Notes under the pieces: generated by a model
What the model was told of the DNA's origin: nothing
The model's database searches: none
The model's input: the letters and a program-made list of their open reading frames with translations, nothing else
Position numbers and translations under genes: made by a program
In this document: positions 114-32,739 of the stretch, piece after piece
Numbering within the stretch: the stretch's first letter is position 1
Layout: each line of letters starts with the position of its first letter
Assembly (NCBI GenBank): GCA_963813535.1
Contig: CAWEZH010000003.1
Coordinates: 384,001 to 448,000 of the forward strand
DNA from: an uncultured Chloroflexia bacterium
GTDB lineage: Bacteria; Chloroflexota; Limnocylindria; Limnocylindrales; CSP1-4
Reading direction: 5' to 3'
Length of the DNA stretch: 64,000 nt

Positions 114-191
114 CACATGCAGTTTGACGCACCGTTCACCGTCGTGTGGCGACGTACCATGCATGCCCCCGACTATGCTTCAGAGGCCACG

Positions 192-1919: not shown

Positions 1920-1924
1920 CCCTG

Positions 1925-2830: not shown

Positions 2831-2841
2831 GGGGCGGACCC

Positions 2842-4527
2842 GTGGCCGCGACGAAAGCGCCCGCCAAGGACCCGGCGCCGTCCGAAGCGCCGCCGGACGA
2901 GCACATCCCTGCCCAACCCGCGCCGCGTCCCAAGGACGCCCCGACGACGATGCGCGAGCTGCGCGAGTCGCGGCAGGGCAAGCGACCGTCCCGCGCCAAG
3001 CCCACGGAGAACGTCCTGCGCGAAGGCCTGCGCCTCGAACGCGTGCCGGACCCGGCGATCCTCGTGCTCTTCGGGGCGACCGGCGACCTCGCCCATCGCA
3101 AGGTCATCCCGGCGCTCTATCACCTGTGGCGGAACAACCTGCTGCCGCATGAATTCGTGCTGCTCGCGATCGGCCGGCGATCGTTCGACGACGACAGCTT
3201 CCGAGACGAGGTCAGGAAGTCGCTCGAAGAGTTCAGTCGCGTCCTGCCGCTGGACGAGCCTGCGTGGCGCGCGTTCAGCAAGCGGATCCACTACCAGGTG
3301 CTCGACTTCGGCGATCCGAGCGGCTTCGACGCGCTGCCGGCCACCCTTGACGAGTACGACACGGCCGATGGCACGCGCGGGAACCGCCTGTACTACCTCG
3401 CGACCCAGCCGTCGCAGTTCGCCGAGATCGTCACGCAGCTCGGGCGGGTCGGCCTGGACCACGAGCGGCACGACGGTGGTTGGCGGCGGACCGTGATCGA
3501 GAAGCCGTTCGGGTACGACCTCGAGTCGGCCAAGAAGCTGAACCGTGATATCGGCAAGGTCTTCCGCGAGTCGCAGGTCTATCGCATCGACCACTACCTC
3601 GGTAAGGAGACGGTCCGCAACCTGCTGGTCTTCCGCTTCGGGAACGGGATCTTCGAACCGCTGTGGAACCGGCGCTACGTCGATCACGTGCAGATCACGG
3701 TGGCCGAGTCGATCGGGATCGAAAGCCGGGGCCGGTTCTACGAGGAGACCGGGGCGGTCCGCGACGTCCTCCAGAACCACCTGCTGCAGCTCGTCAGTCT
3801 CGTGGCGATGGAACCGCCGGCGACCTTCGAGGCCAACGCCCTGCGCGACGAGAAGGTCAAGGTCCTGCGTGCCATCGGGACCCACCCGGCCGACCCGGCG
3901 ACGGAGGTGGTACGGGGCCAGTACGGGCCCGGCTGGGTCGCGGGGCAGCCGGTCCCGGGCTATCGCGAGGAGCCCGAGGTCGACCCCGAATCAGAGACCG
4001 AGACCTACGTCGCTGCCCGACTCACGATCGACGACTGGCGCTGGTCGGGTGTCCCGTTCTACGTCCGGACCGGCAAGCACCTTCCCAAGCGCTCGACCGA
4101 GATCGCGATCCAGTTCCGCGCGGTCCCGCACCACCTCTTCCGCGACACGGCCGCGGAACCTGATGCGAATCTGCTGGCGATGCGCATCCAGCCGGACGAG
4201 GGCATCATGCTGCGCTTCGGGGCCAAGGTCCCGGGTCTCGGGCTCGACGTCCGATCGGTGACGATGGATTTCACCTACGGCTCGGCGTTCAGCGTCGACT
4301 CCCCGGACGCGTACGAGACGCTCATCCTCGACGCCCTCCAGGGCGATGCGTCGCTGTTCACCCGCGCCGACGAGGTCGAGGAGGCGTGGGGCATCGTCGA
4401 CCCGTACATCCAGGCATGGGCGAATGGCCCGCCGCCCGACTTCCCGAATTACGAAGCGGGCACCTGGGGGCCGGCCGCATCCGATGAGATGCTGGCTCGC
4501 GAGGGCCGCCGATGGAGGCGGATCTGA
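2842..4527 (+). CDS. zwf: Glucose-6-phosphate 1-dehydrogenase with Pro-rich N-terminal extension
   Basis: FGATGDLA, EKPFG, RIDHYLGKE, WSGVPFYVRTGK; GTG start inferred. Confidence 0.95.
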   Translation: MAATKAPAKDPAPSEAPPDEHIPAQPAPRPKDAPTTMRELRESRQGKRPSRAKPTENVLREGLRLERVPDPAILVLFGATGDLAHRKVIPALYHLWRNNLLPHEFVLLAIGRRSFDDDSFRDEVRKSLEEFSRVLPLDEPAWRAFSKRIHYQVLDFGDPSGFDALPATLDEYDTADGTRGNRLYYLATQPSQFAEIVTQLGRVGLDHERHDGGWRRTVIEKPFGYDLESAKKLNRDIGKVFRESQVYRIDHYLGKETVRNLLVFRFGNGIFEPLWNRRYVDHVQITVAESIGIESRGRFYEETGAVRDVLQNHLLQLVSLVAMEPPATFEANALRDEKVKVLRAIGTHPADPATEVVRGQYGPGWVAGQPVPGYREEPEVDPESETETYVAARLTIDDWRWSGVPFYVRTGKHLPKRSTEIAIQFRAVPHHLFRDTAAEPDANLLAMRIQPDEGIMLRFGAKVPGLGLDVRSVTMDFTYGSAFSVDSPDAYETLILDALQGDASLFTRADEVEEAWGIVDPYIQAWANGPPPDFPNYEAGTWGPAASDEMLAREGRRWRRI

Positions 4528-4531
4528 TGCG

Positions 4532-5798
4532 ATGACCGCCGCCGCCGAGCCGATCGCCGTCAACGAGCCGGTCCTGCGCTGGTCGGCGCGCGCTCGAAGC
4601 ATCGCCGACGTCGAGAAGGAACTGGCACGGATCTGGGCGAAGCAGGACCTGACGACCGAGGTCGATGGCCAGCCGGGTCGCCATGTCGCCGCGCGCACGA
4701 GCGTGATGAACCTCGTCGTGATCGCTCGGCGGCCCGAGATCGCGGAACGCGGAGCGGCCACGATCCAGGCCCTCACCGGCAAGCATCCCTCGCGGACGAT
4801 CGTCGTCCAGTCGGCCGACCCGGATGGCCCATCCTGGATCGACGCTCGCGTCGAAGCGCACTGCATCATGCCGCGAGAAGATGCTCCCGAGACGTGTGCC
4901 GAGACCATCCACCTGACCGCGGGCGGCGAGGCGGGCCGTCATCTCGCTGCGATCGTCACGCCGTTGGTGATCCACGACCTGCCGGTCACGGTCTGGTGGC
5001 CGGGCGAGCCGCCATTCGCCTCGCGAGCCTCGCTCGACCTGTTCAAGGCGGCCGACCGCCTGGTCGTCGACGGCTCGACGTGGAACGGCGACGGGCTCGC
5101 CCGACTCGGGGAGCTGGCCGCGACCGCGGAAACGACCGAGATCGCGGTGAGCGACTTCGCCATGGTCCGCCAGTCTCGCTGGCGCGAGGCGATCGCGTCG
5201 ATCTTCGACGACCCGGACTTCCTGCCGTACCTCCGCTCGCTGCGGCGCATCGCGGTCACGTACGCGACACACGACGAGTCCGGCGCCCCTGGCTCGACCA
5301 ACCTCGTCAAGCCCGTGTACCACGTCGCGTGGCTGGCGTCGCGCCTCGGGTTCAGCGTCGTCAAGCCGCTGGCGCTTGTCACAGGCGGCGGTCACGCGCC
5401 GGCGTCGAAGGCGCGGTCTGGGTCGGGCACACGCCCGGCCGTGAGTCGCGGGATGGCGGCGACGCTGTCCGACGGCCGCGCCGAGGTGGGCATCGTGATC
5501 CGTCCGGTCGTCTCGCCGATGCCGTCTGGGACCACCCTGCGTATCGAGCTGCTGTGCGATCGGCGGGGGTCCGAGCTGCGGGCGGACGTCACGGCCGAAG
5601 CCGAGACCGTCCACGTCCGGGTGTGGCAGGACGGCGTCGAGTGCCTGGAGCGGCACTTCCTCGCCGCCCGGCGCGGCGACGTCGATCTCCTCGCCGAAGC
5701 GATCGAAGCGGGCCGCCGCGACCTCGTCTCGGCCGGGACCTTGCGGATGGCAGCCAAGCTGGTCGACGGCGGATCCGAAAGGGGCGCGCGCGTCGTGA
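4532..5798 (+). CDS. opcA: G6PD assembly/effector protein OpcA (3' end uncertain, frame disturbance at pgl junction)
   Basis: Directly after zwf; RTSVMNLVV, HPSRTI, DLPVTVWWPG, DRLVVD, RWREAIASIFD. Confidence 0.85.
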
Positions 5799-6596
5799 GC
5801 GGGACCCGAGATCGTCGTCGTTCCGGATGCTGCGGAGGCCTCGCGCCGGGCGGCCGAGGTGATCGCCGGGGCCCTCCGGGAGCGGGTCGCGGCGGTGGGC
5901 CGCGCCGACTGGGTGACGACCGGCGGTTCGACACCGATCGGCGTCTACAACCAGATGGTCGAGATGGGACCCGGAGCCATCCCATGGGATGCAGTCCACA
6001 CCTGGTGGGGCGACGAGCGGTTCGTCCCGGCCGACCATCCCCTCTCGAACGCCCGCCCGTTCGAGGACATCCTTCTCGAGGCAGGAGCATGGGAGAGCGG
6101 CCATTCGGACGACGATCGCGGCCGTACGCTCGTACCCGCCGCGAACGTCCATCCGTTCCGGACGGGCAGAGCGATCGGGGCTGATGGCAGCGCCGACGAC
6201 TGTGCAGCGTGGCTCGAGGAGGAGCTTCGCTCGGCCGAGCTGGAGGAGCGCGACGGATGGCCCGTGTTCGACCTCATGTTCGTCGGGGTCGGGGGCGATG
6301 GCCACATCCTCTCGGTGTTCCCCGGGTCGTCGGCGTTCGACTCGACGCGCTGGGCGATGGCCATCCCGGCCCCGACCCACATCGAGCCGCACGTCCCCAG
6401 GGTGACGCTGAACCCGGCGACCGTCGGCGTGGCGAGGCGCGTCCTGGCCGTCGTGCTGGGTGGATCCAAGTCGGAGGTGGTCGGGCGGCTATTCGATGGG
6501 GAACGGGACCCGGCCGCACTGCCAGCGCAGCTCGCGATCCGCGACGGGGCGACCTGGATCCTCGACGAGGCCGCCGCCGCCGACCTGCGACGGTGA
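5795..6596 (+). CDS. pgl: 6-phosphogluconolactonase (probable +1 indel just after GTG start)
   Basis: TGGSTP, WGDERFVP..HP.SN, GVGGDGHILSVFP, RVTL; removing one G near 5801 gives MSGPEIVVVPD. Confidence 0.9.
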
Positions 6597-7066
6597 CGGC
6601 CGCCGCCGCCGAGCGGCTGGTCATCCGGCGCGCGACCGCAGACGACGCGACCGGCATCGGCGATGTGTGGCTCACGTCCTGGCGCGCGACCTTCGACTTC
6701 CCGCCGTCCCACCCCGACGACGACGTGCGGCGCTGGCTGAGCCAGGAGCTCGTGCCACGGTCAGAAGCGTGGGTCGCCACCGATCCGACCGCCGACGGCC
6801 GGGTGGTGGCGCTGATGGCACTGTCCGACGACAAGGTCGAGCAGCTGTACGTCGCGCCCGACTGGATCGGACATGGGGTCGGGCGGCGGCTGATCGAGCT
6901 CGCAAAGCGTCGGCGTCCGGAGGCCATCGAGCTGTATTGCTTCCAGGTCAATGCCCGGGCGCGGCGGTTCTACGAGCATCACGGGTTCGTGCCGGTCCGG
7001 TACGGCGACGGGTCGGCCAACGAAGAGCGCCAGCCGGACGTGCTCTATCGATGGCAGCCGAGCTGA
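6593..7066 (+). CDS. GNAT family N-acetyltransferase
   Basis: IRRATADD, QLYVAPDWIGHGVGRRL, NARARRFYEHHGF; GTGA overlap with pgl. Confidence 0.85.
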   Translation: MTAAAAERLVIRRATADDATGIGDVWLTSWRATFDFPPSHPDDDVRRWLSQELVPRSEAWVATDPTADGRVVALMALSDDKVEQLYVAPDWIGHGVGRRLIELAKRRRPEAIELYCFQVNARARRFYEHHGFVPVRYGDGSANEERQPDVLYRWQPS

Positions 7067-7881
7067 CGTCGACGCCCGCCCGGGTCGTCGCGTCGCGCGA
7101 TGGGACGCCGATCGCGGTCTTCAGCAGCGGTGATGGCCCGCCGCTCGTCCTGGTCCACGGTGCGGCCGCCGACCACACCACGTTCCGGGTCATCGGCCCA
7201 CGGCTCGCCAGCCGCTACACGGTCCACGCGATCGACCGGCGGGGTCGCGGCCGGTCGGGCGACACGCTGCCCTACGAGATCGAACGCGAGTTCGAGGACG
7301 TGGCCGCCGTCGCGGAGTCGGTCGCCAAGGGAACCGCGGGCGGCGTCGCCGTGATCGGTCATTCCTACGGCGGGCGCTGTGCCTTGGGCGCGGCGCTCTT
7401 GACCGATGCCATCGACCGGGTCGTGTCCTACGAAGGAGCACCGACCCCGCCGGGCGTGGAGTACGGCGACGCGACGTTGGCCGACGAGCTCGCGACGCTC
7501 GCCGCGGCCGGCCAGGACGACCTCGTGCTGGAGACGTTCGTCCGCCGCGTGGTCGGCATGGATGACGCGGCCATCGCCGCCTATCGCGCCGATCCGGTGT
7601 GGCCGCTGCGAGTCGCCGCGGCGCACACCATCCCGCGCGAGCTCGTCGCCGAAGGCCGCGCGGGCGCCGCTGGTCTCGACGTCCTGGCTCGGGTCCGTCA
7701 ACCGGTGCTCCAGGTGCTCGGCGGCGACAGCCTGCCGTCGTTCGCCGAGGCCACGACGGCATTGCACGACCGGCTCATCGACGGCCGGATCGTGGTCATC
7801 CCGGGCGCCCGCCACGCCGCCCACCACACCCATCCCGACGCGTTGATCGAGGCGATCGACACGTTCCTGGCCGGCGGCTGA
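7051..7881 (+). CDS. Alpha/beta fold hydrolase
   Basis: LVLVHG, DRRGRGRS, GHSYGG nucleophile elbow, C-terminal His. Confidence 0.9.
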   Translation: MAAELTSTPARVVASRDGTPIAVFSSGDGPPLVLVHGAAADHTTFRVIGPRLASRYTVHAIDRRGRGRSGDTLPYEIEREFEDVAAVAESVAKGTAGGVAVIGHSYGGRCALGAALLTDAIDRVVSYEGAPTPPGVEYGDATLADELATLAAAGQDDLVLETFVRRVVGMDDAAIAAYRADPVWPLRVAAAHTIPRELVAEGRAGAAGLDVLARVRQPVLQVLGGDSLPSFAEATTALHDRLIDGRIVVIPGARHAAHHTHPDALIEAIDTFLAGG

Positions 7882-7918
7882 ACCACGTCGACAGGTGTGA
7901 GCGTGGGATACTCGGAAC

Positions 7919-8179
7919 ATGCCTGACTTCGGCCTCATCGAGTGGATCGTCGTCGGTCTGATCGCCGGGGCGATCTCCGGCGCCGTCGTCGGCGGGCGGA
8001 CGGCGCGGGGCTGCCTGCCCAACATCGTGGTCGGCATCGTCGGTGGTGTCATCGGCGGCTGGCTGGCCCAGCAGATGGGCTTCGGGCCGGTGAACGGGCT
8101 GATCGCGGTCATCGTCGTCGCGACGCTCGGGTCGATCGTCGTACGGCTCATCCTCAACGCCATGGACGGCAGGTCGTGA
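7919..8179 (+). CDS. GlsB/YeaQ/YmgE (transglycosylase-associated) membrane protein
   Basis: WIVVGLIAGAI...NIVVGIVGGVIGGWL pattern, 86 aa. Confidence 0.85.
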   Translation: MPDFGLIEWIVVGLIAGAISGAVVGGRTARGCLPNIVVGIVGGVIGGWLAQQMGFGPVNGLIAVIVVATLGSIVVRLILNAMDGRS

Positions 8180-9312
8180 CCGATTCGCCGCCGGCCGACG
8201 CTCCGACCGAGACCTCGGTCCAGGCGACACGGCCCTACTCCCCGGGCCTCGAGGGCGTCATCGCCGGCGAGACCAGCCTCTCGTACATCGACGGTGCGGC
8301 GGGTCGCCTGCTGTACCGCGGGTACCGCATCGGCGACCTCGTCGAGCGCGGCACCTACCCAGCCGTCGCGAACCTGCTCTGGACCGGGGAGTGGGACGCG
8401 TCGCACCGTCTCGCGACCGCCCCCGTGCCGCCGACCGTCCTCGACGTGCTTCGGGCGATGCCAGCGGATACGAAGCCGATGGACGCGCTGCGGACCGCGG
8501 TCTCGGCGTGGGGCGCCACGCAGGACCTGCCCTGGCCGCCGACCGTGGAGCAGGCACGGGCGCTGACGGCCTTCTCGCCGTCGGCGCTCGCGGCGTTCGC
8601 GCGGATGCGATCCGGCAAGGACCCCATCGAGCCCGACCCGGAGCTGGGCCTCACGGCCGGCTTCCTGTACCAGCTCACCGGGGAGCGGCCCGAGCCTGGC
8701 ACCGCCCGGGCGCTGGATGCCTACTTCATCGTCGGTGCCGAGCACAGCTTCAACGCCTCCACGTTCACGGCACGCGTCATCGCGTCGACCCGCTCGGATA
8801 TCGCCTCGGCGGTGGCGGGAGCGATCGGGACGATGAAGGGACCACTCCACGGCGGCGCCCCGTCGGAGGTGGTCGACCAGCTGTCACAGGTCGGTTCGGC
8901 CGAGCACGCCGAGGCATGGATCCGCGAGACGCTCGAGAAGGGCGAACGCCTCATGGGCTTCGGGCACCGCGTGTACCGCGCATACGACCCACGGGCCGCG
9001 GCGCTGCGCACCGTCGCGGAGGGCATGGAGCACAAGCCGGAGTGGCTCAAGCTGGCGACCGAGGTCGAGGATGTCGCGCTGCGGATCCTCGCGGAGAAGC
9101 ACCCCGAACGACCGATCCGGACCAATGTGGAGTTCTACGCGGCGCCCGTCCTCATGGGCGTCGGGCTGTCGCCCGACCTGTTCCCGGCCACGTTCTCGCT
9201 TTCGCGCCACGCCGGCTGGACGGCCCACGTCCTCGAGCAGGCCGCCAACAACCGACTGATCCGGCCGGACGTGAACTACGTCGGCCCAGACGAGCGCGAC
9301 CTCCCGGGTTGA
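8176..9312 (+). CDS. Citrate/2-methylcitrate synthase
   Basis: GLEGV, LLYRGY, EHSFNASTF, GPLHGGA, MGFGHRVY, NVEFY. Confidence 0.92.
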   Translation: MTDSPPADAPTETSVQATRPYSPGLEGVIAGETSLSYIDGAAGRLLYRGYRIGDLVERGTYPAVANLLWTGEWDASHRLATAPVPPTVLDVLRAMPADTKPMDALRTAVSAWGATQDLPWPPTVEQARALTAFSPSALAAFARMRSGKDPIEPDPELGLTAGFLYQLTGERPEPGTARALDAYFIVGAEHSFNASTFTARVIASTRSDIASAVAGAIGTMKGPLHGGAPSEVVDQLSQVGSAEHAEAWIRETLEKGERLMGFGHRVYRAYDPRAAALRTVAEGMEHKPEWLKLATEVEDVALRILAEKHPERPIRTNVEFYAAPVLMGVGLSPDLFPATFSLSRHAGWTAHVLEQAANNRLIRPDVNYVGPDERDLPG

Positions 9313-9316
9313 CCCG

Positions 9317-10426
9317 TCACCCGGCCGGAGCGGTCTCCAGCGCCCGGCCACGACGCGCGGCGGTCGCTCGCTCCACGATGCGGTCGACGACATACGCCGC
9401 GTCGCGGGATGCGCCGTCGATGAGCATCGACGTGAGGCCGTACTGGAAGGGGACGCCGAGGAAATACAGCCCGGTCGTCGATGCGACGCCGCGATGCTGG
9501 ATCGGCCATCCGTCGGCGGCGAGCTCGGCAGGCTCGACCCAGGCGTAGTCGGGTCGGAAACCCGTCGCCCAGATGACGTTCGCGACGTCCACGACGGCAC
9601 CATCCTCGAGGACCGGCATGCCGTCACGCACACCCGAGATCCTGGCCCCGTGCAGCTCTACGCCCGCCTGCCAGAGCTCGGATCGGCGCACACGCAGCAG
9701 GGGTGCCGGGAGCACGCGCGAGGTCGCCGACGCTCGACGGCCGATCGGCGTGCGGATCGTGAGCACGTGCTGCTCGACGAACGCGAGTAGTGGCAGGAAC
9801 AGTCGAGCACGCCACGTGTCGAGCACGGGGAACGGCAGTTCGCCGTGCGGCGTGCCGGAGAGGATCGTCCGATGGGTGGCGGCCACCTCGAACGCGATGT
9901 CAGCCCCGGAGTGCCCGACCCCGACGACCAGGACCGGCCCGTCGGCGAGCTGTGACCGGTTTCGATACTCGCTGGAGTGGATCTGACGGATCGCCGGGTC
10001 GAGCCGACCGGCGACGTCCGGGATCCTCGGCCGCGAGAACGCGCCGGTCGCCACGATCACCTGGCGCGCCCGGATCCGGCCGACGGGCAGCACCGCGATC
10101 AGGTCGTCGCTGCCGTCCTCCGACCGGATCAGGCGCTCGATCCGCGTGTCCATCCGGACGGGGAACCTGGACGCGGCCGCGTACGCCTCGAGGTAGTCCC
10201 CCATCTGGCGTCCCGTCGGGGAGCTCCATCCCGGCGCGGGGAACGGCATGCCCGGGAGCGCGTCCCAGCGAGCCGGACTGAACAGACGAAGCGAGTCATA
10301 GCGGTGACGCCACTGGTCGCCGATCCGCTCGCTCGCATCGACGATGAGGAACGAACGGCCGTGCCTCGACAGGTGGTAGGCCGCAGCCAGGCCCGTCTGC
10401 CCCGCGCCGATGATCAATGTGTCCAC
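9317..10426 (-). CDS. Flavin-containing monooxygenase (CzcO/TrkA-like flavoprotein)
   Basis: IIGAGQTG, WRHRYDSL, ATG, IHSSEYRN, VGVGHSG, IWATGF; SD-preceded GTG at 10454 is one base out of frame. Confidence 0.85.
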   Translation of the reverse strand: MDTLIIGAGQTGLAAAYHLSRHGRSFLIVDASERIGDQWRHRYDSLRLFSPARWDALPGMPFPAPGWSSPTGRQMGDYLEAYAAASRFPVRMDTRIERLIRSEDGSDDLIAVLPVGRIRARQVIVATGAFSRPRIPDVAGRLDPAIRQIHSSEYRNRSQLADGPVLVVGVGHSGADIAFEVAATHRTILSGTPHGELPFPVLDTWRARLFLPLLAFVEQHVLTIRTPIGRRASATSRVLPAPLLRVRRSELWQAGVELHGARISGVRDGMPVLEDGAVVDVANVIWATGFRPDYAWVEPAELAADGWPIQHRGVASTTGLYFLGVPFQYGLTSMLIDGASRDAAYVVDRIVERATAARRGRALETAPAG

Positions 10427-10508
10427 TCGTTCGGGTGCGCTCGGTCGGATCCACGCTGGCCTCCCGCTGTCTGTCGGAGGCGACCGACAGGGCCGGTCGC
10501 CGTCGACG

Positions 10509-10554
10509 ACGCTAGGCGCGCGCGGGCGGACGGCGCATCCGCCGAACTACCCAA
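10509..10554 (-). promoter_or_regulatory. Putative LuxR-family operator plus -10 (TAGCGT) for the monooxygenase
   Basis: TTGGGTAGTTCGGCGGATGC followed by CCTAGCGT between the LuxR gene and its downstream gene; function inferred from position. Confidence 0.3.
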
Positions 10555-10588
10555 AGTGTTCGCCGACGACGAATGGGTACCGGGCGGG

Positions 10589-12220
10589 TCAGCTCATACG
10601 ATGTTCGACCGCGAACGCCGTCGCGGCGGCACGCGACGTCACGCCGAGCTTCACGAAGATGTTGCTGACGTGACGATCCACGGTCCGTTCGCTGATGCCG
10701 AGCGCCGACGCGATCGCTCGATTCGTCCGCCCGGCAGCCACCAGGCCAAGGACCTCGGCCTCCCTGGTCGACAATCCGCCGGGTGCTCTCGGGGGTCGGT
10801 CGGCCAGTCGTTCGACGCGTCTGAGGTCCGGCTCGGCGCCGAGCTCTCGGAAGATGCGCAGCGCCGCATCGAATTCGAGCGCCGCGGAGTCGGCATCACC
10901 GAGCGCCTGCAGGGCTTGCCCAAGGTCCGCGCGGACTCTTGCCACGTCGTACGGCGCCTCGAGCGCGTGCCAGCCCGACTCCGCCGAGCGAAGTCGGCGA
11001 AGCGCCTCTCGCGCATCGCCCGTGGCCAGACAGACTTCCCCCTCCAGGCGGGCCAGGATCGCGTCGAGCATCGGAGCCGGGCGGTCCCGGTCCGCGGCGG
11101 CCAGCCCTTCCACAGCCTGGCCCGCTCGGTCGATGTCACCGGTCGCGAGCGCGATCTCGCCCAGGGCCGGCATGAGCCGGACGCGTGCGATGTCATCGGC
11201 AGCCTCCTCGAGCGCACGCTCGATCATCGATCGAGCCGCCTTGCCCCTGCCGCGGGCGAGCAGCAGGAGCGCGAGACCGGGCTCCGGGCGACGGCCCCAC
11301 TGGCTCGCCTCGCGGTAGGCGGTCTCGGCGGCGGCGAACTCGCCACGCAACCGATGCAGCTCACCCTGCTCGTAGTAGGCCTCGCCGACGGCGGGCTCCG
11401 GCGGTGGCCGGAGCAGCCACGCCTCCGCCCGTCGGGCTTCGTCGAACGCCGTCGCCCAATCCCCGTGGAACCGCATCAGCTCGCTCCGGTACACCAGGCA
11501 GCGGCCACGGAACGGGAGGCGGTCGGACTCGCGCGCGCTCCATTCGGTCAGCGCCTGGGTCCAGTCCTGTGCTCGACGGAGGTCGAAGATCTCGTTGAAC
11601 GCCTCGATGGCGGCGCAGTAGACGATGCCCGTCACGAGCGGTGATAGCTCGTCCGACGTCACCGCGACCATGGCATCGTCGAGCAGGGCCACACCCTCCT
11701 CGGTCTGGCCGAGGCCGATCAGCGAACGACCCTTGCCCAGTCGTGCCAATGCGCCGAGATCGGCGTCGTCGAATCGTGCGGCGTAGGTCGCGGCAATCTC
11801 GAACGCGGCGAGCGCCGCCGCTGGATCGGGCTCGACCTGGCGGATGCCGTCCGGGATGGCCAGATAACCCCGCTCGACGGTGTCGAGATCGTGCTCGTCG
11901 AGCAGGCGCGCCGCTCGACCGATCCAGCCGCCGCCCTGGGTGACATCGCCGCGCTGCAGGAACGCCATCCCGAGCCAGAACGCCATCCGTGCCGCGCGCA
12001 CGAAATCTCCCGCGGTCATGGCCGCGCGATGGATGCGGGCCGCCAGCTGACCGGCCACCTCGTCGTGCCCGCAGTACTGCGCTGCGAACCCGGCCATCTC
12101 GAGGTCGTCGAGCCCGAGCGGCGCCACCCGGTCCGCCTCGGTCAGCAGGTCGAAGGCCTCGGACCACGCTCTCCGGGCGTACGCCGCGCGGCCGCGCTCG
12201 ATCCGGTCGTCCACCGTCAT
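10589..12220 (-). CDS. LuxR-family transcriptional regulator (helical repeat region plus C-terminal HTH)
   Basis: C-terminal LSTREAEVLGLVAAGRTNRAIASALGISERTVDRHVSNIFVKLGV. Confidence 0.92.
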   Translation of the reverse strand: MTVDDRIERGRAAYARRAWSEAFDLLTEADRVAPLGLDDLEMAGFAAQYCGHDEVAGQLAARIHRAAMTAGDFVRAARMAFWLGMAFLQRGDVTQGGGWIGRAARLLDEHDLDTVERGYLAIPDGIRQVEPDPAAALAAFEIAATYAARFDDADLGALARLGKGRSLIGLGQTEEGVALLDDAMVAVTSDELSPLVTGIVYCAAIEAFNEIFDLRRAQDWTQALTEWSARESDRLPFRGRCLVYRSELMRFHGDWATAFDEARRAEAWLLRPPPEPAVGEAYYEQGELHRLRGEFAAAETAYREASQWGRRPEPGLALLLLARGRGKAARSMIERALEEAADDIARVRLMPALGEIALATGDIDRAGQAVEGLAAADRDRPAPMLDAILARLEGEVCLATGDAREALRRLRSAESGWHALEAPYDVARVRADLGQALQALGDADSAALEFDAALRIFRELGAEPDLRRVERLADRPPRAPGGLSTREAEVLGLVAAGRTNRAIASALGISERTVDRHVSNIFVKLGVTSRAAATAFAVEHRMS

Positions 12221-12239
12221 GGACGCTCCAGCCTACCGC

Positions 12240-13241
12240 CTAGAGCCAGCCTCGGCGACGGAACAGGATCACGAGCGCGACCAGCAGCACCGCCATCAGG
12301 ATGAGGATCAGGAAGAACGTGGCCACTTGACCCTCGCCGGGGAACGCCACGTTCATCCCGAAGATGCTCGCGATGAGGGTGAGCGGGAGGAGGACCACGC
12401 TCGCTGCGGTGAGGATCCGGAAGGAGTCGTTCAGTCGGTGCGACAGCACCGCCTCGTTCGTCGACTCGAGGCCCTCGATGACCTCCTTGTAGTTCTCGAG
12501 GGTGTCCCAGATCCGCTCGGCCGCGTCGGAGATGTCGTCGAAGTAGATCTCGAGCTCTTCCTGGAGATAGCGCTGCTTGGTGCGCTCGAGGTCGCGCAGC
12601 ACCGCGCGCTGCGGCCGGACGATCTTCCGGAAGTTGATGATCTCCTGCTTGGCCTCCGAGATGTCCCGGACGATCTCCGACGAGCGACCCTCGAAGATGT
12701 CGTCCTCGAGCCGCTCGAGCTTCAGCCCGGTCTTGCGCAGCATGGGGAACGACGCGTCCACCAGGGTGTCGACGATCTTGTACAGGAGGTAGCCGGTGCC
12801 CTTCGAGAAGACTTCTTCGCGCAGGTCCGGCTTCTCCCGATAGCGGTCGAACATCGCCGAGAGGGGCGGCAGCGCGATGTTGGGCAGCGTGATCAGGAAG
12901 TCCGCACCCAGGAACAGATCGAGCTCGGCGGTGAGGATGCGCCCGCTGTCCTTGTCGAACAATGGGAAGTGCAGCACGATGAAGACGTAGTCGTCGTACT
13001 GGTCGAGCTTCGGGCGCTGGTTGCGCGAGAAGACGTCCTCGTAGTCGAGCGGGTGGAAATCGAAGTGCTCTTCCAGCCAGTCGCGGTCGGCGGTACGCGG
13101 GGATTCGATATGGATCCAGCGGATGCCCGCGGCCTCGATGATCTCGGGATCCGCGACCGTGTCGGGCATGACGACATCGACCTCGCCACCGGAACGGCGG
13201 CGAGGGCGCGGCAGCGGACGCGGGAACGGCAGATTGGGCAC
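12240..13241 (-). CDS. corA: CorA-family Mg2+/Co2+ transporter
   Basis: FHPLDYED, QRPK, PLTLIASIFGMN signature, two C-terminal TM helices. Confidence 0.92.
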   Translation of the reverse strand: MPNLPFPRPLPRPRRRSGGEVDVVMPDTVADPEIIEAAGIRWIHIESPRTADRDWLEEHFDFHPLDYEDVFSRNQRPKLDQYDDYVFIVLHFPLFDKDSGRILTAELDLFLGADFLITLPNIALPPLSAMFDRYREKPDLREEVFSKGTGYLLYKIVDTLVDASFPMLRKTGLKLERLEDDIFEGRSSEIVRDISEAKQEIINFRKIVRPQRAVLRDLERTKQRYLQEELEIYFDDISDAAERIWDTLENYKEVIEGLESTNEAVLSHRLNDSFRILTAASVVLLPLTLIASIFGMNVAFPGEGQVATFFLILILMAVLLVALVILFRRRGWL

Positions 13242-13264
13242 GGCGGAATGGTACGGCACAGGGT

Positions 13265-14170
13265 GTGGTGACCGGACGCCTGGGCGAGCGGGTCGGGCCG
13301 CGGTTCGCTGCGCGGGTCGACGGCCTCGGCCGCTGGCTCGACGAGCACCCGTGGGTCGGGCCGAGCCTGGCTGCCGTCGCCTGGTTCGTGATCGTCGTCC
13401 TGTCCTCGCCGTGGGGTCGCCTGTGGGGAACCGGCCAGGACGCGTACTGCTACTGGTTCCCGTCGCTGGACGACCCCTACGCCCGCTCCGACTGGACGGA
13501 CCCGATCGCCTACGTGTACTCGCCGGCCTTCCTGCAGCTGCTGCAGCCGATCCGGATCCTGCCGTGGCAGGCGTACATGGCCGCCTGGACGCTCATCCTC
13601 CTCGGCGCGTTGGTCGTCCTGACCGGGCGTCGGTGGCTGGCCGTCGGCGTGGTGCTGGGGCTGATGGAGCTCGCAGGCGGCAACATCCACCTGCTGATCG
13701 CGGCGGCCATCGTGCTCGGCTTCCGCCATCCATGGACGTGGTCGATCGTGCTGCTGACGAAGATCACCCCAGGGATCGGTCTCTTGTGGTTCGTCGTCCG
13801 GCGCGAATGGCGGAACCTCGCGATCGCGCTGGGAGCCACCGCTGCGATCGTGCTCGTGTCCTTCGTCGTGATGCCGGATGCCTGGCGGTCCTGGGGCGAG
13901 GTGCTCAGCCGGGTCGCGGGCCGGGACGGCACATGGGCAGCGGTCCCCATCCCGTTCGTCGTCCGGTTCCCGGTCGCCGTCGCGGTGGTCATCTGGGGAG
14001 CGTGGACCGGTCGGCGCTGGACGGTCCCGGTGGCCTCGATGCTCGCGCTGCCGGCGTTGTGGTACGGCGGCCTGTCGATGCTCCTGGCGGTCATCGCGTT
14101 GCGCGAGAACGTGGAGCCGGTGCGCCCATCGGGTAGGCCGGTGGGGAGCCCGGCGGTCGCCCGGACCTAG
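13265..14170 (+). CDS. GT-C (GT87-like) polytopic membrane glycosyltransferase
   Basis: D..CY, YVYSPAF, GNIHLL, KITPG motifs; multiple TM segments. Confidence 0.75.
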   Translation: MVTGRLGERVGPRFAARVDGLGRWLDEHPWVGPSLAAVAWFVIVVLSSPWGRLWGTGQDAYCYWFPSLDDPYARSDWTDPIAYVYSPAFLQLLQPIRILPWQAYMAAWTLILLGALVVLTGRRWLAVGVVLGLMELAGGNIHLLIAAAIVLGFRHPWTWSIVLLTKITPGIGLLWFVVRREWRNLAIALGATAAIVLVSFVVMPDAWRSWGEVLSRVAGRDGTWAAVPIPFVVRFPVAVAVVIWGAWTGRRWTVPVASMLALPALWYGGLSMLLAVIALRENVEPVRPSGRPVGSPAVART

Positions 14171-14305
14171 GGTCGCAAGCCGCACGTGGACACGCCGGTC
14201 ATCCAAGTCGCGCGCGGCCGCGTATGGATGGTCAAACCCGTGCTGTTCCTCGCGCCGACGGTCGTCCCGGGGGGGAGGCCGTCGGCGCCTCCGCCTTCAG
14301 GCTGG

Positions 14306-15577
14306 TCACGGCCCCGTTGCGCTCGTGGCGGGACCCGGATCGCGGACGCCACCTCGAGCCCTCGTCGCGATCACGATGGCACCGACGATCAGCACCCCGC
14401 CGCCGACCAGGAAGGGCGCGGGCACGCCACCGACGCCGACCACGACTGCACCGACCGACGGTCCGACGATCCCGGCCGCGTACAGCGGCAGGTAGACGAG
14501 GTTGAGCGTCGCCGAGCGTCGGTCCGCGGGTATGTCCGTCGCGAGCATCCCGAAGATCATGGCGCTGACCGTGGCGGTGGCGGCCGCGAAGACGACCGCC
14601 AGGCCGGACAGGGCAGGCACGGCCGAAACGAAGGGCATCGACGCGAGCACCGCACCGCCGCCCGCAAGGGCGGCGACCAGGACCGGTCGGAACCCGACGC
14701 GATCGCCGAGCACGCCACCGAATGGAGCGATCAACCCCCCGACGAGGGCCGACGTGCCCATCACCAGCGCGATCGCCGACGCGAGACCGGGACCGGTGCC
14801 GACCAGGTCCTCGACGACGACGGGCAGGTAGGGACGACTCATCTGGGTCGCCAGGAACGACACGCCGAAGATCGCGAAGATCCGCCGGACGGCCGGATCG
14901 GCGAGCACGCTGCGCAGCGCGCCGTACGCGAGGGCGAGCACCGGCCCCACCGGGACCACCGACGGTCGCACCTCTCGCGATCCGACCGCAACGAGCAGCG
15001 CCGTCCCGACCGAGAAGGCGGCCGACAGCCAGAACACGGCCGGTAGCGTCCAGCCCAGACCGTCGATGAGGATGCCGGCGAGGGTCGGTCCGAGCGCCAT
15101 CCCGACGACGGTCGACGCGCCGAAGATGCCCATGACCGTCCCCAGCCTGGCCAGGGGCGTCACGTCGCGGATGCCGGCGAGCATCACGCCGGTGTTGCCG
15201 AGCTGGAAACCGATCAGCAGCATGCTCAGGGCGAGCTGCCAGGGCTCGCGCGACAGGGCCACGCCCGCGAACACCACCGCCTCGACGAGCGCGCTGCGGA
15301 TGATGACGGCCTTGCGGCTGTACTTGTCGGCCCACACGCCCCACAGCGGGACGAGCGGCATCCCCACGACGAAGATCAGGGCCGTGAACAGGCCGACGAA
15401 CGCCAGCCGCTCGTCCTGGGGCACACCCATCTGCCGCAGGTAGGTCGGGACGAGGGCGAAGATCTGGCTGACCCCGAGGCCCTCGACCATCGAGGTGATC
15501 CAGAAGACCGCCAGGAGGACGCGCCAGTCCTGGCCGGACCGGGGCAGATCGTCGGGTCGAGGGATGCCTGCGCTCAC
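14306..15577 (-). CDS. MFS transporter (DHA1-like)
   Basis: PLWGVWADKYSRK and GVLGDRVGFR motif A copies; about 12 TM. Confidence 0.9.
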   Translation of the reverse strand: MSAGIPRPDDLPRSGQDWRVLLAVFWITSMVEGLGVSQIFALVPTYLRQMGVPQDERLAFVGLFTALIFVVGMPLVPLWGVWADKYSRKAVIIRSALVEAVVFAGVALSREPWQLALSMLLIGFQLGNTGVMLAGIRDVTPLARLGTVMGIFGASTVVGMALGPTLAGILIDGLGWTLPAVFWLSAAFSVGTALLVAVGSREVRPSVVPVGPVLALAYGALRSVLADPAVRRIFAIFGVSFLATQMSRPYLPVVVEDLVGTGPGLASAIALVMGTSALVGGLIAPFGGVLGDRVGFRPVLVAALAGGGAVLASMPFVSAVPALSGLAVVFAAATATVSAMIFGMLATDIPADRRSATLNLVYLPLYAAGIVGPSVGAVVVGVGGVPAPFLVGGGVLIVGAIVIATRARGGVRDPGPATSATGP

Positions 15578-15609
15578 CGCTCCGAGCGTAGCGGAGCGCA
15601 CACTAAAGC

Positions 15610-15792
15610 GCCCGAAGGAACTGGTGGGAGGACCACCTGTCGGCTCGCAACGGCTCCGAACAAGTCCGGAGTCATTACGCTCCGCCCGGGTCCCTCGCTC
15701 ACTGGCCTTGCGGCCAGCGAACCCGGCTCCCGGGACCGTCCCGAGGATCGCTCCTCGATGCGGTCTGGCGGTTCGCACCTGCCCCTTCGGGC
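15610..15792 (-). ncRNA. ssrS: Structured 183-nt non-coding RNA, 6S RNA candidate
   Basis: 5' GCCCGAAGGGGC pairs with 3' GUUCCUUCGGGC and extends as an irregular stem; GGGAGCC...GGGACCC internal motif; apical GCAA tetraloop; -10 TACATT 7 nt upstream. Confidence 0.55.
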
Positions 15793-15799
15793 AAGAGGA

Positions 15800-15948
15800 A
15801 ATGTACCGGCCGGGGCCACGGACCCACAACCGCCTTATCCACGAACTTCGCGGAAACCGCGGCGAGCTTATCCCCGACTTTCCGACCGATGTGGACGAGA
15901 TGTGGACGGCCCCTCTCTGAAACACCGATGCAACATCCATTGCCCACG
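15800..15948. promoter_or_regulatory. Divergent promoter region with -10 (TACATT, minus strand) and DnaA-box-like cluster
   Basis: TTATCCACG 15835, TTATCCCCG 15868, TGTGGACGA 15890, TGTGGACGG 15901, TTGCCCACG 15940. Confidence 0.45.
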
Positions 15949-15981
15949 GCTCAGGCGTAGATTTCGATGGGAGGTAGGCCC

Positions 15982-16854
15982 GTGGCACGTCTGTTGGCCC
16001 GGCTCGTGGCCGTGAACGACGGGTGGGCGCGCCCGTTCGGTGCGTTCAATCTTCGCTGGACCCGCGCGGTCTTCCGTGCGATGACGCCGGTCCGCGACCT
16101 CCTCAACGGGCGCTGGCTCGGCCATCCGCTCCACGCGGCGACGACCGATATCCCGATCGGGTTGCTCCTCGGGTCGGTCCTCCTGGACCTGATCGGGCAA
16201 CCGACGGCGGCCGACATCACGCTCGTCGCGACCATCGTCTTCATGGTGCTGTCCGCCCTGTCGGGGCTCGCCGACTACAGCGAGACGACCGGCACGGCCC
16301 TCACCCGGGCCACCCTCCACGCCTCATTGATGACGGTGGCCCTCGTCATCCTGATCGTGTCGGCAGTGCTGCGAGGCGGCGCCCCGGCCGACCGGACGGT
16401 GCCGATCGCCCTGTCGATCGTCGGGTTCCTCTTGGTGACGGCCGGCGCATTCGTCGGCGGGGACGTCGCCTATGTGCTCGGGAACATGGTGAGCCGCCAC
16501 GCGTTCCGGGGCGCCGGCACGAAATGGGTACGCCTCGATACGGGCGACATCGGCGATCTGACCGCGCTTCCCGAGGCCACGCCCACGAAGATGCGCGCCG
16601 GGATCAACGACGTCCTGGTCGTCCGGATCGGCGACCGGCTCCACGCGCTGCACAACGTGTGCGCGCACGCGGGCGGGCCATTGAACGAAGGCCGTCTGGT
16701 TGACGGCTGCATCGAATGTCCGTGGCACTACTCGCGGTTCGACCTGGCCGATGGTCAGGCCAAGCGCGGCCCGACGGTCTATGACCAACCGAGCTACGAG
16801 ATCCGGAGCGCCGACGGTGGCGGATATGAGGTGCGCCGCGCCGCGACCGCCTGA
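15982..16854 (+). CDS. DUF2231-like membrane domain fused to Rieske [2Fe-2S] domain
   Basis: GHPLHAA..DIPIG, four TM, then CAHAGGPL and CPWHYSRF; SD GGGAGG. Confidence 0.88.
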   Translation: MARLLARLVAVNDGWARPFGAFNLRWTRAVFRAMTPVRDLLNGRWLGHPLHAATTDIPIGLLLGSVLLDLIGQPTAADITLVATIVFMVLSALSGLADYSETTGTALTRATLHASLMTVALVILIVSAVLRGGAPADRTVPIALSIVGFLLVTAGAFVGGDVAYVLGNMVSRHAFRGAGTKWVRLDTGDIGDLTALPEATPTKMRAGINDVLVVRIGDRLHALHNVCAHAGGPLNEGRLVDGCIECPWHYSRFDLADGQAKRGPTVYDQPSYEIRSADGGGYEVRRAATA

Positions 16855-18295: not shown

Positions 18296-20506
18296 TCAGG
18301 CCGGGGCTCCGCTTCCGGTCTCGACCGGCCGAAGCGACGGGTCATCGACCCCATCGTCGACGGTCGCCGGCCCCGGCAGCTCGACCACCGCGTGGGCCGC
18401 CGCGTCGTACCGGTCGGACGTCGTCAGGTAGATGATCTGGAAGTCCTCGGCGACCCGCTTCAGGAGCGCGAGGGCCCGAGTGGCGCGCTCGTCGTCGAGC
18501 GTCACGAACGGGTCATCGAAGATCAGGGGTGGCCGGCGATCCCCAGTGACGAGCCGAACAAGCCCCAACCGCGCCGTGAGGTAGACCAGGTCGAGCGTGC
18601 CCTGGCTCAACGTGCTCACGGGCACCCAGTCGCCTCGTTCGGGTGCATGAACGTCGATGTCCAGCGTCTTGTCGTCGACCCGGACGCGGCGGTAGCGACC
18701 GCCGGTCACCGACGAGACATCGCGGACCATGTGGCCCTCGAGATAGCGCGTCGCGGTCTTCATCGTCGCCGCCTCGGCCGCTTCGATCGCGCGGAGCGTC
18801 GTCTCGAGCACCCGGTATCGGCGCTGGGACAACGCCAGCTGCTCGCGCCACACGGCCAGACGCTCGGCATCTGCCGCGACCTGCTCGGCGTCGACTGCGA
18901 TGTTCTCGACCCGAGCCCTCGTGTTCGCTTCGTCGTCGCGCGACCGGTCGAGCGCCGCCTCCTGATCGCGGACCTCGACCTCGAGCCGCTCGCGCGCCCG
19001 CGGCTCCTTGGCGATCGGCCCGAGCGACTCCATCGCGCTCGTCTTCTGCTCGATCTCGAGGGCCGCCGCGTCGCGCAGCGGCGGCAACGTCTCGCGCGGC
19101 TCCTTGCCGACCAGGCCGTCGAGCTGGGCGGAGAGCTGGTCCATGCGCGCGACGTGTGCTTCCTCGCGCGCCAGGAGGTCTTCGGCAGCGGGGACGTCGT
19201 CGAGGCCGAGCGTGCCGAGCTGCTGCTCGGTGTCGACTTCGGCCTGGTGCAGCTCCGCCTCCATCTCCGACCGGCCGCGTAGCCGCCGATCGATCTCGAC
19301 ATCGCGCAATTGTTCCTGCATCTGCGAATGGCGACGCAGCCACACCGCCACAGCGCTGAGGATCCCGCCGATCAGCGCCAAGGCGGCACCAAGGAACAGC
19401 GGCGGCATGCCGAGATCGGCGATACCAAGGACGTCGAGCACGATGCTGCCCCCCGCGAGGAGGACGCCGATCAGGACGGCGATCAGACCCAAGCGCGACA
19501 GCGGCCGCCAGGTCGGTTCCGGCGCGACCTCGAAATTGACGTCGATCTCCCCGGCGAGCGAGGCACGGAGCTCGCGCATCCGGGAGTCCAGCACGCGCAG
19601 CCGCTCGACCGCCTGGCGGATGACTGGCAGGGGATTGGGCGATGGATGGGTCTGGGCAAGCTCGTCGAGCTCGGTGGCGACCTCGACCGCTTCGCGGAAG
19701 CGTTCATAGCGCTCGCGAGCCGCGGTGCGCTCGGCGTCGAGCCGCTCGGCCTGGCGGGCCTTCTCGAGCATCGCGCGCTTCTCTGCCAGTCCACGCTCGG
19801 ACTCGAGCCGCCGTTCGCGCGCCGTCGACAGCGAGTCGCGGTCACGCTCGAGCTGGGCCAGGTCGAGCTCGCCCTTCTCGACCGTGGCGGCAGCCTCGGC
19901 CACGGCGGCCTCGGACAGCTTGAGCCGACCGGGATTCTTGTCGCCCTTCGTCGTCAGCTCATAGATGGCCCGCTCGAGACGCTTCTTCACCCGGCCCGTA
20001 CCCCGATCGGCACCGCTGATGCTGGCCTGGAGCCGATCGCGCAGGGCCGCCTCGTCGCGGGCGAGGTCGCTGAGCTCGTGATGGCGGACCGACGCCGTCG
20101 AGCGGAAGAACGATTCGTTGGCGATGCCGGACAGCTCGGCCAGGACCTGGTCGGCAAGCGCGGGATCGGTGACCCGCTGGCCGTCATAGACGAGGTCGAC
20201 GGTCCCCTTCTGCCCGCCGAACCACTTCTCGAGCGTACCGGTCGCGAGTCGCCCGTCCTCCTCGTCCTGCTCGAACTCGATGGCGACCCACGGGCGGGCA
20301 TCCGGTCCGGCGTCCCACGGCCGGAGCGATTCCAGGTCCGCCGCGTTGCTCGTGACGCGCCGGGTCAGGGCAAGCTCGATGGCTCGCTGGATCGTGCTCT
20401 TGCCGGCCTCGTTCGGACCGCGCACGACCGTGACGCCGGGGGCCAGGTCGATGTCCAGCTCGCGGTACCGGCGCAGGTCACGGACCTGCAGTCGGCGGAT
20501 CCTCAC
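18296..20506 (-). CDS. SMC/Rad50-like coiled-coil ATPase (YhaN/SbcC-like) with central hydrophobic hairpin
   Basis: GPNEAGKST, long coiled coil, LSQGT, IFDDPFVTLD. Confidence 0.88.
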   Translation of the reverse strand: MRIRRLQVRDLRRYRELDIDLAPGVTVVRGPNEAGKSTIQRAIELALTRRVTSNAADLESLRPWDAGPDARPWVAIEFEQDEEDGRLATGTLEKWFGGQKGTVDLVYDGQRVTDPALADQVLAELSGIANESFFRSTASVRHHELSDLARDEAALRDRLQASISGADRGTGRVKKRLERAIYELTTKGDKNPGRLKLSEAAVAEAAATVEKGELDLAQLERDRDSLSTARERRLESERGLAEKRAMLEKARQAERLDAERTAARERYERFREAVEVATELDELAQTHPSPNPLPVIRQAVERLRVLDSRMRELRASLAGEIDVNFEVAPEPTWRPLSRLGLIAVLIGVLLAGGSIVLDVLGIADLGMPPLFLGAALALIGGILSAVAVWLRRHSQMQEQLRDVEIDRRLRGRSEMEAELHQAEVDTEQQLGTLGLDDVPAAEDLLAREEAHVARMDQLSAQLDGLVGKEPRETLPPLRDAAALEIEQKTSAMESLGPIAKEPRARERLEVEVRDQEAALDRSRDDEANTRARVENIAVDAEQVAADAERLAVWREQLALSQRRYRVLETTLRAIEAAEAATMKTATRYLEGHMVRDVSSVTGGRYRRVRVDDKTLDIDVHAPERGDWVPVSTLSQGTLDLVYLTARLGLVRLVTGDRRPPLIFDDPFVTLDDERATRALALLKRVAEDFQIIYLTTSDRYDAAAHAVVELPGPATVDDGVDDPSLRPVETGSGAPA

Positions 20507-32642: not shown

Positions 32643-32739
32643 TGGCGGGAACGCGTGGGAGTCGAACCCACCACGCCACGCCGAGCGCGGCATCACCGGT
32701 TTTGAAGACCGGGGGACCCACCGGGGCCCAACCGCTCCC
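32643..32739 (-). tRNA. selC: tRNA-Sec (anticodon UCA)
   Basis: 6-bp D stem with 4-nt loop, CCGGU-CU-UCA-AA-ACCGG, 9-bp variable arm, GUGGG-UUCGACU-CCCAC, G73, encoded CCA; 10 nt upstream of selA. Confidence 0.97.

Follow-up and report, generated by a model that had tools for sequence, protein, structure and literature searches.

The 64,000-nt stretch of DNA analysed here, called the window in the following, was taken from the genome assembly of an uncultured Chloroflexia bacterium (GCA_963813535.1, contig CAWEZH010000003.1, forward-strand positions 384,001 to 448,000). A 390-nt gap between an MFS transporter gene and a DUF2231/Rieske gene holds a 183-nt element on the minus strand, and we show that this element is a gene of its own, which encodes a stable and very abundant non-coding RNA in an uncultured soil Chloroflexota lineage. 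The lineage, which bears Candidatus Limnocylindrales labels, turns up in soil and freshwater sequencing and is known here as uncultured genomes only. An earlier reading of the window from its letters (the sequence-only reading) had already given the sequence, coordinates and strand of the RNA, and these are borne out; the minus strand folds far better than the plus strand. RNA position 1 corresponds to 15792 and position 183 to 15610, and the minus strand from 15792 to 15610 reads GCCCGAAGGGGC...GUUCCUUCGGGC.

The predicted minus-strand fold has an energy of -121 kcal/mol, against a mean of -81.9 kcal/mol for dinucleotide shuffles (z -8.59), and none of 200 shuffles was as good, whereas the fold of the plus strand reaches only -97 kcal/mol (z -4.05). 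The minimum-energy fold is a four-way junction of the elements P1 to P4, which are arranged as follows:

15610..15792, minus strand: mature structured RNA of 183 nt, supported by its fold (z -8.59), by full-length covariance-model matches in relatives and by RNA contigs
15767..15792, minus strand: 5' strand of P1; its first 12 nt, GCCCGAAGGGGC, belong to the near-invariant closing helix, which is extended by GGUG and GAACCGCC
15610..15637, minus strand: 3' strand of P1, which ends in GUUCCUUCGGGC; two of its pairs with the 5' strand are conserved G-U pairs
15734..15765, minus strand: P2 hairpin (RNA 28-59), with a lower stem, a 2x2 internal loop, a CGAGGA/UCCUCG stem and a GCGA loop
15686..15733, minus strand: P3 apical arm (RNA 60-107), interrupted by two purine-rich 2x2 internal loops; its conserved tip CCGCAAGG has a GCAA loop
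15641..15684, minus strand: P4 hairpin (RNA 109-152), with a CUUG cap in the genus of the window

The strand of the RNA is settled because of the G-U pairs in P1. Beyond its 12-bp closing helix, P1 continues with GGUG/CACC and then with GAACCGCC/GGUGGUC. The predicted structure leaves little unpaired, since its junction linkers have 0-3 nt per strand and its longest unpaired run is 4 nt, and all three hairpins end in tetraloops, which are of the GNRA type in P2 (GCGA) and P3 (GCAA) and CUUG in P4. P2 is the best conserved inner element, with the consensus CCG..CG..GAG..AUC..CG..CGG, and the loop of P4 is GAUCACAUCAAG in several other genera. Seven helices had been named in the sequence-only reading, six of which are found in the minimum-energy fold, namely the 12-bp terminal helix, GGUG/CACC, GAACCGCC/GGUGGUC, the hairpins CGAGGA-GCGA-UCCUCG and CUCCGGA-CUUG-UUCGGAG, and the GCAA-capped apical arm. 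The seventh, CGCA/UGCG, is absent, because its bases make the lower stems of P2 and P4, which have covariation support.

Conservation, covariation and expression

The RNA is present in one copy in its own 3.28-Mb assembly. According to a blastn search, 34 of 36 genus-mates carry it with an identity of 75-98%, and a covariance model (R1) built from an alignment of 30 genus sequences (A1) gave one full-length match in each of 21 genus genomes. When R1 was applied to an order-level sample, the RNA was detected in 44 of 108 genomes of the same family, always as one full-length match, and in none of 42 genomes of a small-genome sister family; these genome counts are lower bounds, as closer searches recovered at least one missed genome. 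A search of the phylum with a further model (R2) scored 17 first-look candidates per genome, which makes its zeros weak, and it missed family members that were later found by closer or pattern search. Close searches of five genomes of f3, the second family of the class, gave shorter relatives only, and the long form was found neither in these five nor in one closely searched genome of the small-genome family f2. Nearly all public records in which the long form occurs have titles of metagenome-assembled genomes (MAGs) of Chloroflexota or Candidatus Limnocylindrales. The DNA sequencing runs listed for the RNA are soil metagenomes, a listing that may hint at a habitat. Two public MAG contigs with the RNA are titled 'Patescibacteria group' (L089) and 'Thermomicrobiales' (L115), and these labels look wrong: L089 has the genus-typical Rieske and MFS neighbours, and L115 has an MFS gene at the contig end.

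The sequence-only reading had proposed to collect homologues and to examine their covariation, and both support the fold. In the genus alignment of 28 distinct sequences, 20 of 71 pairs change on both sides, compared with 8.5 in shuffles, and 92.5% of the cells are paired. Among 25 sequences from multiple genera, aligned to the model, both-side changes affect 52 of 71 pairs against 31.9, and a larger set of 74 distinct multi-genus sequences gave the same 52 of 71 against 39.2 in shuffles, with 88.7% of the cells paired versus 30-49% when the partners were slid; the alignments used for covariation are fitted to the model. The changes are spread over all elements, with 11/24 pairs in P1 (inner pairs), 9/12 in P2, 15/18 in P3 (model helices 3-5) and 17/17 in P4 (helices 6-7). 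The outer 12 pairs of P1 almost never vary. In the paralogues described below, however, pair 6 of P1 changes from A-U to G-C (GCCCGGAGGGGC with CCUCCGGGC). These data confirm that the 183-nt RNA is real and structured.

An RNAalifold consensus calculated on a MAFFT alignment preferred a local 5' pairing (columns 10-12 with 24-26) instead of the closed molecule. It was set aside because all 30 of 30 single-sequence folds close the helix and because the paralogues swap A-U for G-C at pair 6. Alignment A2 was left out, as reverse-strand matches were mixed into it.

Metatranscriptome contigs from 4 runs of 3 studies cover 15605-15792 only. The flanks are without RNA cover except for one depth-3 contig at 15447-15533, and window parts lacking such cover give no evidence of silence. 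In an rRNA-depleted library, the summed k-mer depth on the RNA reaches about 2x10^5, contig depth being a rough measure. The contigs end at 15605-15610 on the 3' side and have 15792 as their highest coordinate, and one of them carries 24 A right after 15609, which places a 3' end one base beyond the helix that closes the RNA. The 183-nt RNA thus ranks among the most abundant non-ribosomal transcripts in the libraries examined, yet it fits no family.

Promoter block, tail and gene neighbourhood

The conserved stretch extends from about 55 nt upstream to about 11 nt downstream of the RNA and includes three further features:

15800..15829, minus strand: promoter-like block with TTGTGG (15829-15824), an 18-nt variable spacer, TACATT (15805-15800) and 7 nt to the first base
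15834..15845, minus strand: upstream box TTCGTGGATAAG with the core GTGGAYAA at 15842-15835, 5 nt before the -35 element
15599..15609, minus strand: U-rich tail GCUUUAGUGUG directly after the closing helix; conservation stops just past the tail

The TACATT that had been seen 7 nt upstream in the sequence-only reading is confirmed at 15805-15800, before the first G at 15792. The promoter-like block is kept in 30 of 30 genus sequences, and the same layout is found in other genera and in the paralogues, so that we infer a promoter role for TTGTGG/TACATT. The core GTGGA.AA of the box is likewise invariant in 30 of 30 genus sequences. U-rich tails like GCUUUAGUGUG follow all paralogues, and this tail is probably a termination signal that is trimmed off in the mature RNA.

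The box resembles the consensus of the DnaA box. The 8-mer TTATCCAC occurs 11 times in the own genome, with 6 of the occurrences at promoters of the RNAs and 2 at the parA-parB promoter. The latter two are overlapping boxes at 296780-296784 of contig 2, in the divergent promoter region between the parA-parB operon and a carboxyl-transferase gene, and their position fits the idea of a DnaA-type site. An origin of replication as explanation for the box was considered and discarded, as dnaA is located elsewhere and as three or more near-consensus boxes within 500 nt occur nowhere in the assembly. Upstream of the promoter, the window region 15868-15909 shows further box-like sequences on the strand of the RNA, namely CCGTCCACA at 15909-15901, TCGTCCACA at 15898-15890 and GGGGATAA at 15875-15868. 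At two other places of the own genome, 952587 of contig 3 and 1145501 of contig 2 (both minus strand), the box is combined with the -35/-10 layout and no clamp helix lies behind it. These sites may represent further RNAs or regulated genes; an Rfam scan of the two gave only a chance snoRNA match.

The two genes that border the gap lie outside the RNA unit:

14306..15577, minus strand: MFS transporter gene, downstream of the RNA (Pfam MFS_1, 4e-32)
15967..16854, plus strand: divergent DUF2231/Rieske gene (Pfam), syntenic within the genus only

The position of the MFS gene raises the question whether the RNA could be its cis-acting leader or riboswitch, which the sequence-only reading had kept as a possibility. 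A distance of 32 nt separates the end of the RNA from the GTG at 15577, in agreement with the roughly 30 nt given there, RNA and gene are on the same strand, and a simple scanner calls no classical terminator between them, as had also been noted. A leader should keep a constant position before the same class of gene across lineages, and this is not what the loci show. The synteny was analysed by tblastn of the MFS and Rieske proteins of the window against 195 oriented loci, which include duplicates of the same place and some loci with 300-nt flanks only; the MFS protein matches 81 and the Rieske protein 88 of them, all with genus-like synteny. Within the genus the distance between RNA and MFS gene ranges from about 30 to about 590 nt, and the nearest relative, whose RNA is 98% identical, has CorA downstream in place of an MFS gene, together with a GT87 gene on the opposite strand. 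The MFS gene is also absent downstream of the RNA in several genus-mates and in all other genera examined, where the neighbours are unrelated: a DnaB-like helicase with inorganic pyrophosphatase, an RDD protein with nucleoside phosphorylase, MoaA, thymidine kinase, a response regulator, a VWA/BatA protein or CorA. Because the neighbouring genes differ between genera, the RNA is no MFS leader, and as its contigs also stop at 15605-15610, we regard a leader function as extremely unlikely.

The clamp-RNA superfamily

Weak model matches to short elements with the same two helix strands gave the first sight of a larger group of RNAs. On the features set out below, the 183-nt RNA is the largest member of a superfamily that is confined to the taxonomic class of the window. 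All members have in common a GTGGAYAA box upstream of the -35 element, the near-invariant closing helix GCCCGAAGGGGC/GUUCCUUCGGGC, which we call the clamp, and a U-rich tail. Between the clamp strands lies a body of one to three hairpin modules, and the lengths accordingly run from 58 to about 190 nt, with single hairpins of 58 nt, double hairpins of about 145 nt and the long form of roughly 180 nt. Of 20 members drawn from two families, 16 carry the exact box and the other 4 deviate from it at one position; two more loci that had been retrieved are not represented in this count.

The own genome contains exactly three perfect clamp pairs and two one-mismatch variants and thus five members. The four paralogues, and the rRNA end with which their loops were compared, are located as follows:

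contig 2, 666819-666896 and 667070-667149, minus strand: tandem paralogues of 78 and 80 nt with the loop GGUGUUUACAU (fold z -5.4 and -7.7)
contig 3, near 115556-115629, minus strand: paralogue of about 74 nt with the loop GAGAUCACAUCAAGG
contig 2, 1795698-1795770, plus strand: paralogue of 73 nt with the loop GGAGAUCGCAUCAACG
contig 2, 45110: 3' end of the 16S rRNA

Each of the four is preceded by the same box and -35/-10 layout and followed by a similar tail, and their loops fall into two types, GGUGUUUACAU and GAGAUCRCAUCAA. No Rfam family matches these loci at gathering score, nor at E<=1 with the exception of one chance snoRNA match. A repeat of the kind of miniature inverted-repeat transposable elements (MITE) or repetitive extragenic palindromes (REP) does not agree with these observations. 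Such repeats are dispersed in many copies between inverted repeats, lack a promoter and show no compensatory evolution, whereas the 3.28-Mb genome has only 5 clamp RNAs, all of them preceded by the common promoter block, and the long form is syntenic within the genus and covarying.

In the family sample, the clamp pattern occurs in 104 of 121 genomes (103 of 120 without the unpublished genome G336), usually 1-6 times, compared with 9 matches in all for the backwards control. The phylum sample gave it in 12 of 16 genomes of family f1 and in all 15 of f3, and in none of 3 genomes of the small-genome family f2. Outside the class it was seen in 9 of 266 genomes, which does not exceed the control level (18 control matches). 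In one genome of the second family (G309), contigs C36 and C43 carry the same 135-nt clamp RNA at the same offset (positions 30-164), probably because this region was duplicated or wrongly split in the assembly.

The loops of the small members open the possibility that the 183-nt RNA, like its small paralogues, is a base-pairing regulatory small RNA (sRNA) whose conserved loops pair with mRNAs and whose clamp serves for stability only. GAGAUYRCAUCAA and GGUGCUUGCAUC recur as loops across the superfamily, and the former, a conserved loop of 11-13 nt, is found both in paralogues and as the P4 loop of several genera. The conserved small-paralogue loop GAGAUCACAUCAA (GAUCACCUCAA in some genomes) moreover shares GAUCAC.UC with the own 16S 3' end GGAUCACCUCCUUUCU. 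This likeness could be chance or a mimicry of the anti-Shine-Dalgarno tail, and it could also mean pairing with Shine-Dalgarno sequences. A shared promoter box is, in addition, typical of sRNA regulons with multiple copies. In the window RNA and in the whole genus, however, each of the three hairpins ends in a tetraloop and unpaired stretches are 4 nt long at most, and the conserved parts are helices and internal loops. A base-pairing function of the long form is therefore improbable in our view.

Relation to 6S RNA and possible modes of action

The sequence-only reading had offered two interpretations, a divergent 6S RNA with both bubble strands folded or a new class of non-coding RNA. The Rfam scan that it had proposed as a check gave no 6S or other RNA-family match at the locus. 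At gathering score, no family of Rfam 15 other than tRNA-Sec matches in the window, and a scan of 15300-16100 up to E=10 returned noise only; mir-673, BTH_s19 and sR32, which came up across the window and the paralogue loci, were dismissed as chance matches. The 6S model RF00013 (gathering score 46.4 bits) matches neither in the window nor in 15300-16100 at E=10, nor in the whole genome at E<=10, although RNAs of the signal recognition particle (SRP) and of RNase P as well as transfer-messenger RNA (tmRNA) were found elsewhere in that genome. Searches of the literature found no paper that pairs the names of the lineage with small or non-coding RNA, and among publications on 6S RNA and Chloroflexi, taken mostly as titles and the beginnings of abstracts, none was found to deal with this RNA.

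The 6S possibility nevertheless requires a closer look, as the 183-nt RNA could be the functional 6S RNA of its lineage, a divergent RNA that binds RNA polymerase and whose bubble strands, folded into P2 and P4, would open on the enzyme. It has the expected size (about 180-200 nt in 6S) and is a single-copy, stand-alone and very abundant RNA with a summed depth in the RNA libraries of up to about 2x10^5. No Rfam 6S is found anywhere in the own genome, nor in 15 further genomes of the class (f1 0/4, f2 0/1, f3 0/10). This absence is weak evidence, since 116 of 151 Chloroflexota genomes also lack an Rfam 6S match; the same model matches the other 35, and 28 of these matches are over the cut-off. 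Canonical 6S RNA consists, according to a published account, of an outer closing stem, a large single-stranded 5' central bulge with the start of the product RNA (pRNA) and an apical stem (PMC8414754), and a hairpin opposite the 5' bulge is described there as normal (PMC8414754). Closing stem, apical stem and opposite hairpin have present and covarying equivalents in P1, P3 and P4, and P4, which could be the counterpart of the hairpin opposite the bulge, would by itself fit that description.

6S RNA binds the housekeeping RNA polymerase holoenzyme and serves as template for the pRNA, and here the 183-nt RNA differs on the 5' side of its junction. Where the central bulge with the pRNA template is expected, RNA 28-59 form the 32-nt hairpin P2, with both-side changes in 9 of its 12 pairs. 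Each strand of the junction has 3 unpaired nt at most, which leaves no bulge as template. The canonical 6S RNAs of Chloroflexota are the usual rod with a bulge of the GUUUUGAGCCAACAC type and have no motif, promoter or helix in common with the 183-nt RNA. Its clamp and promoter are instead shared with single- and double-hairpin RNAs of 58-145 nt, which cannot be 6S, and the long form was not found in the five f3 genomes and the one f2 genome that were closely searched. Taken together with the missing model match even at E=10, this makes a 6S function unlikely and speaks against the divergent-6S interpretation, and the option of a new class of non-coding RNA holds, as neither an Rfam family nor a paper that corresponds to the RNA was found. 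The interpretation given in the sequence-only reading is thus partly supported. If it were the 6S stand-in of the lineage after all, the known structural range of RNA polymerase decoys would widen. The canonical 6S RNAs of the phylum (L211-L222) measure 167-185 nt and are concentrated in certain Chloroflexota families (10/10, 5/5 and 4/4 genomes).

Among known systems, the 183-nt RNA seems closest in its way of working to protein-binding RNAs that stand alone and are abundant (6S, Y RNAs and decoys of the Csr/Rsm type), and it departs from each of them in the features that could be tested. With 6S (RF00013) it shares, besides size and abundance, a long closing stem, an apical arm and a central hairpin on the 3' side. 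In Y RNAs, the 5' and 3' ends form one conserved stem and the bodies differ, and the superfamily resembles Y RNAs and YrlA in its several paralogues per genome, its differing bodies and its conserved end stem, which is common to the five clamp RNAs of the own genome. Unlike the Y RNAs, the partners of Ro60/Rsr, the clamp RNA has no Rfam Y match, tRNA-like module or rsr neighbour, and the TROVE domain (PF05731) of the partner protein, whose gene usually adjoins that of the RNA, gave 0 matches in the own, 93%-complete genome, while the Deinococcus and Bacteroides controls were detected. RsmX/Y/Z, CsrB/C and Qrr1-5 are sRNA regulons of multiple copies with a common upstream site. The superfamily is comparable to them in that RNAs of different length are built from repeated hairpin modules, each behind the same conserved box, but it lacks GGA loops, its ends are clamped by a common closing helix, and it has another box and belongs to another lineage. 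The raiA motif and OLE are orphan structured bacterial RNAs that were found by comparative genomics, and like these the 183-nt RNA is conserved, lineage-restricted and supported by covariation; it differs in having a paralogue family with a shared clamp and no sequence or structure match in Rfam 15. New here are the expression evidence, the rejection of a 6S and of a leader role, and the paralogue superfamily with its shared box, clamp and tail.

We tentatively propose, with somewhat less than even confidence, that the 183-nt RNA is a trans-acting, probably protein-bound stable RNA of a new family. The proposal is made because an accessible seed is missing, because helix and loop sequences are invariant and because the abundance is very high; conservation is found in the helix, where two G-U pairs are fixed, in a hairpin with a tetraloop and in the purine internal loops. 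Transcription would start at the first G of the closing helix and stop at the U-rich tail, which would then be trimmed back to the helix, so that the helix clamps both ends and stabilises the RNA. The RNA may then act in trans as a protein-bound scaffold or decoy, in which one factor would recognise the clamp helix common to all members and the specific surface would come from the body. The shared upstream box could make the whole set of RNAs a co-regulated regulon under one regulator, possibly DnaA.

Several points weigh against this proposal. The invariance of the clamp in the long form is partly given by construction, because the pattern that collected 68 of the 78 sequences of alignment A4 required the clamp and because the models were made from clamp-bearing sequences, and constraints of transcription start and termination alone could also account for it. 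A Ro/TROVE protein that would fit a Y-RNA-like clamp is the very partner for which the search of the 93%-complete genome was negative, and no gene consistently adjoins the RNA across the loci examined. A consensus scanner calls neither a promoter nor a terminator at the locus, the promoter block being below its threshold. The metatranscriptome contigs cannot prove strand, level or exact ends, and one RNA contig extends 57 nt past 15792 with letters unlike those of the window. Finally, the conserved P4 loop of 11-13 nt in some genera could be a base-pairing seed in those members.

Another view of the same structure would be that of a catalytic or otherwise self-contained RNA, such as a ribozyme or a trans-acting RNA that binds a ligand, with junction and tetraloops building an active core. 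The compact, almost fully paired fold and the high abundance would be compatible with it, and GNRA loops and tandem purine internal loops often make tertiary contacts. However, no known ribozyme or riboswitch family of Rfam matches, the RNA contigs show no joints or internal ends, and the single-hairpin paralogues argue for a simpler common function, and we think that this explanation is very unlikely.

A more far-reaching version of the protein-bound, trans-acting reading would be that the class has replaced a global regulator of the 6S type by a regulon of end-clamped RNAs that are expressed from DnaA-box-like promoters. The 183-nt RNA would be the master member, binding RNA polymerase or the ribosome, the loops of the small members would mimic the 16S 3' end, and the state of the replication initiator would be coupled directly to global transcription or translation; we consider this quite unlikely. 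Independent of it, the superfamily is built in an unusual way, with a single promoter box and a single clamp helix that recur while the hairpin modules can be exchanged. A comparison of its members lends itself to the search for the factor that binds the clamp and for the regulator that acts on the box, and the clamp RNAs offer a natural stable scaffold for RNA engineering.

Close to the locus, the window also contains an SMC/SbcC-like ATPase gene (18296-20506, minus strand; AAA_23, SMC_N) and a gene for a GT87 glycosyltransferase (13265-14170, plus strand), for both of which no link to the RNA was seen. The sole Rfam match of the window at gathering score belongs to a selenocysteine tRNA gene at 32647-32739 on the minus strand (tRNA-Sec, 72.4 bits, E 7e-13).

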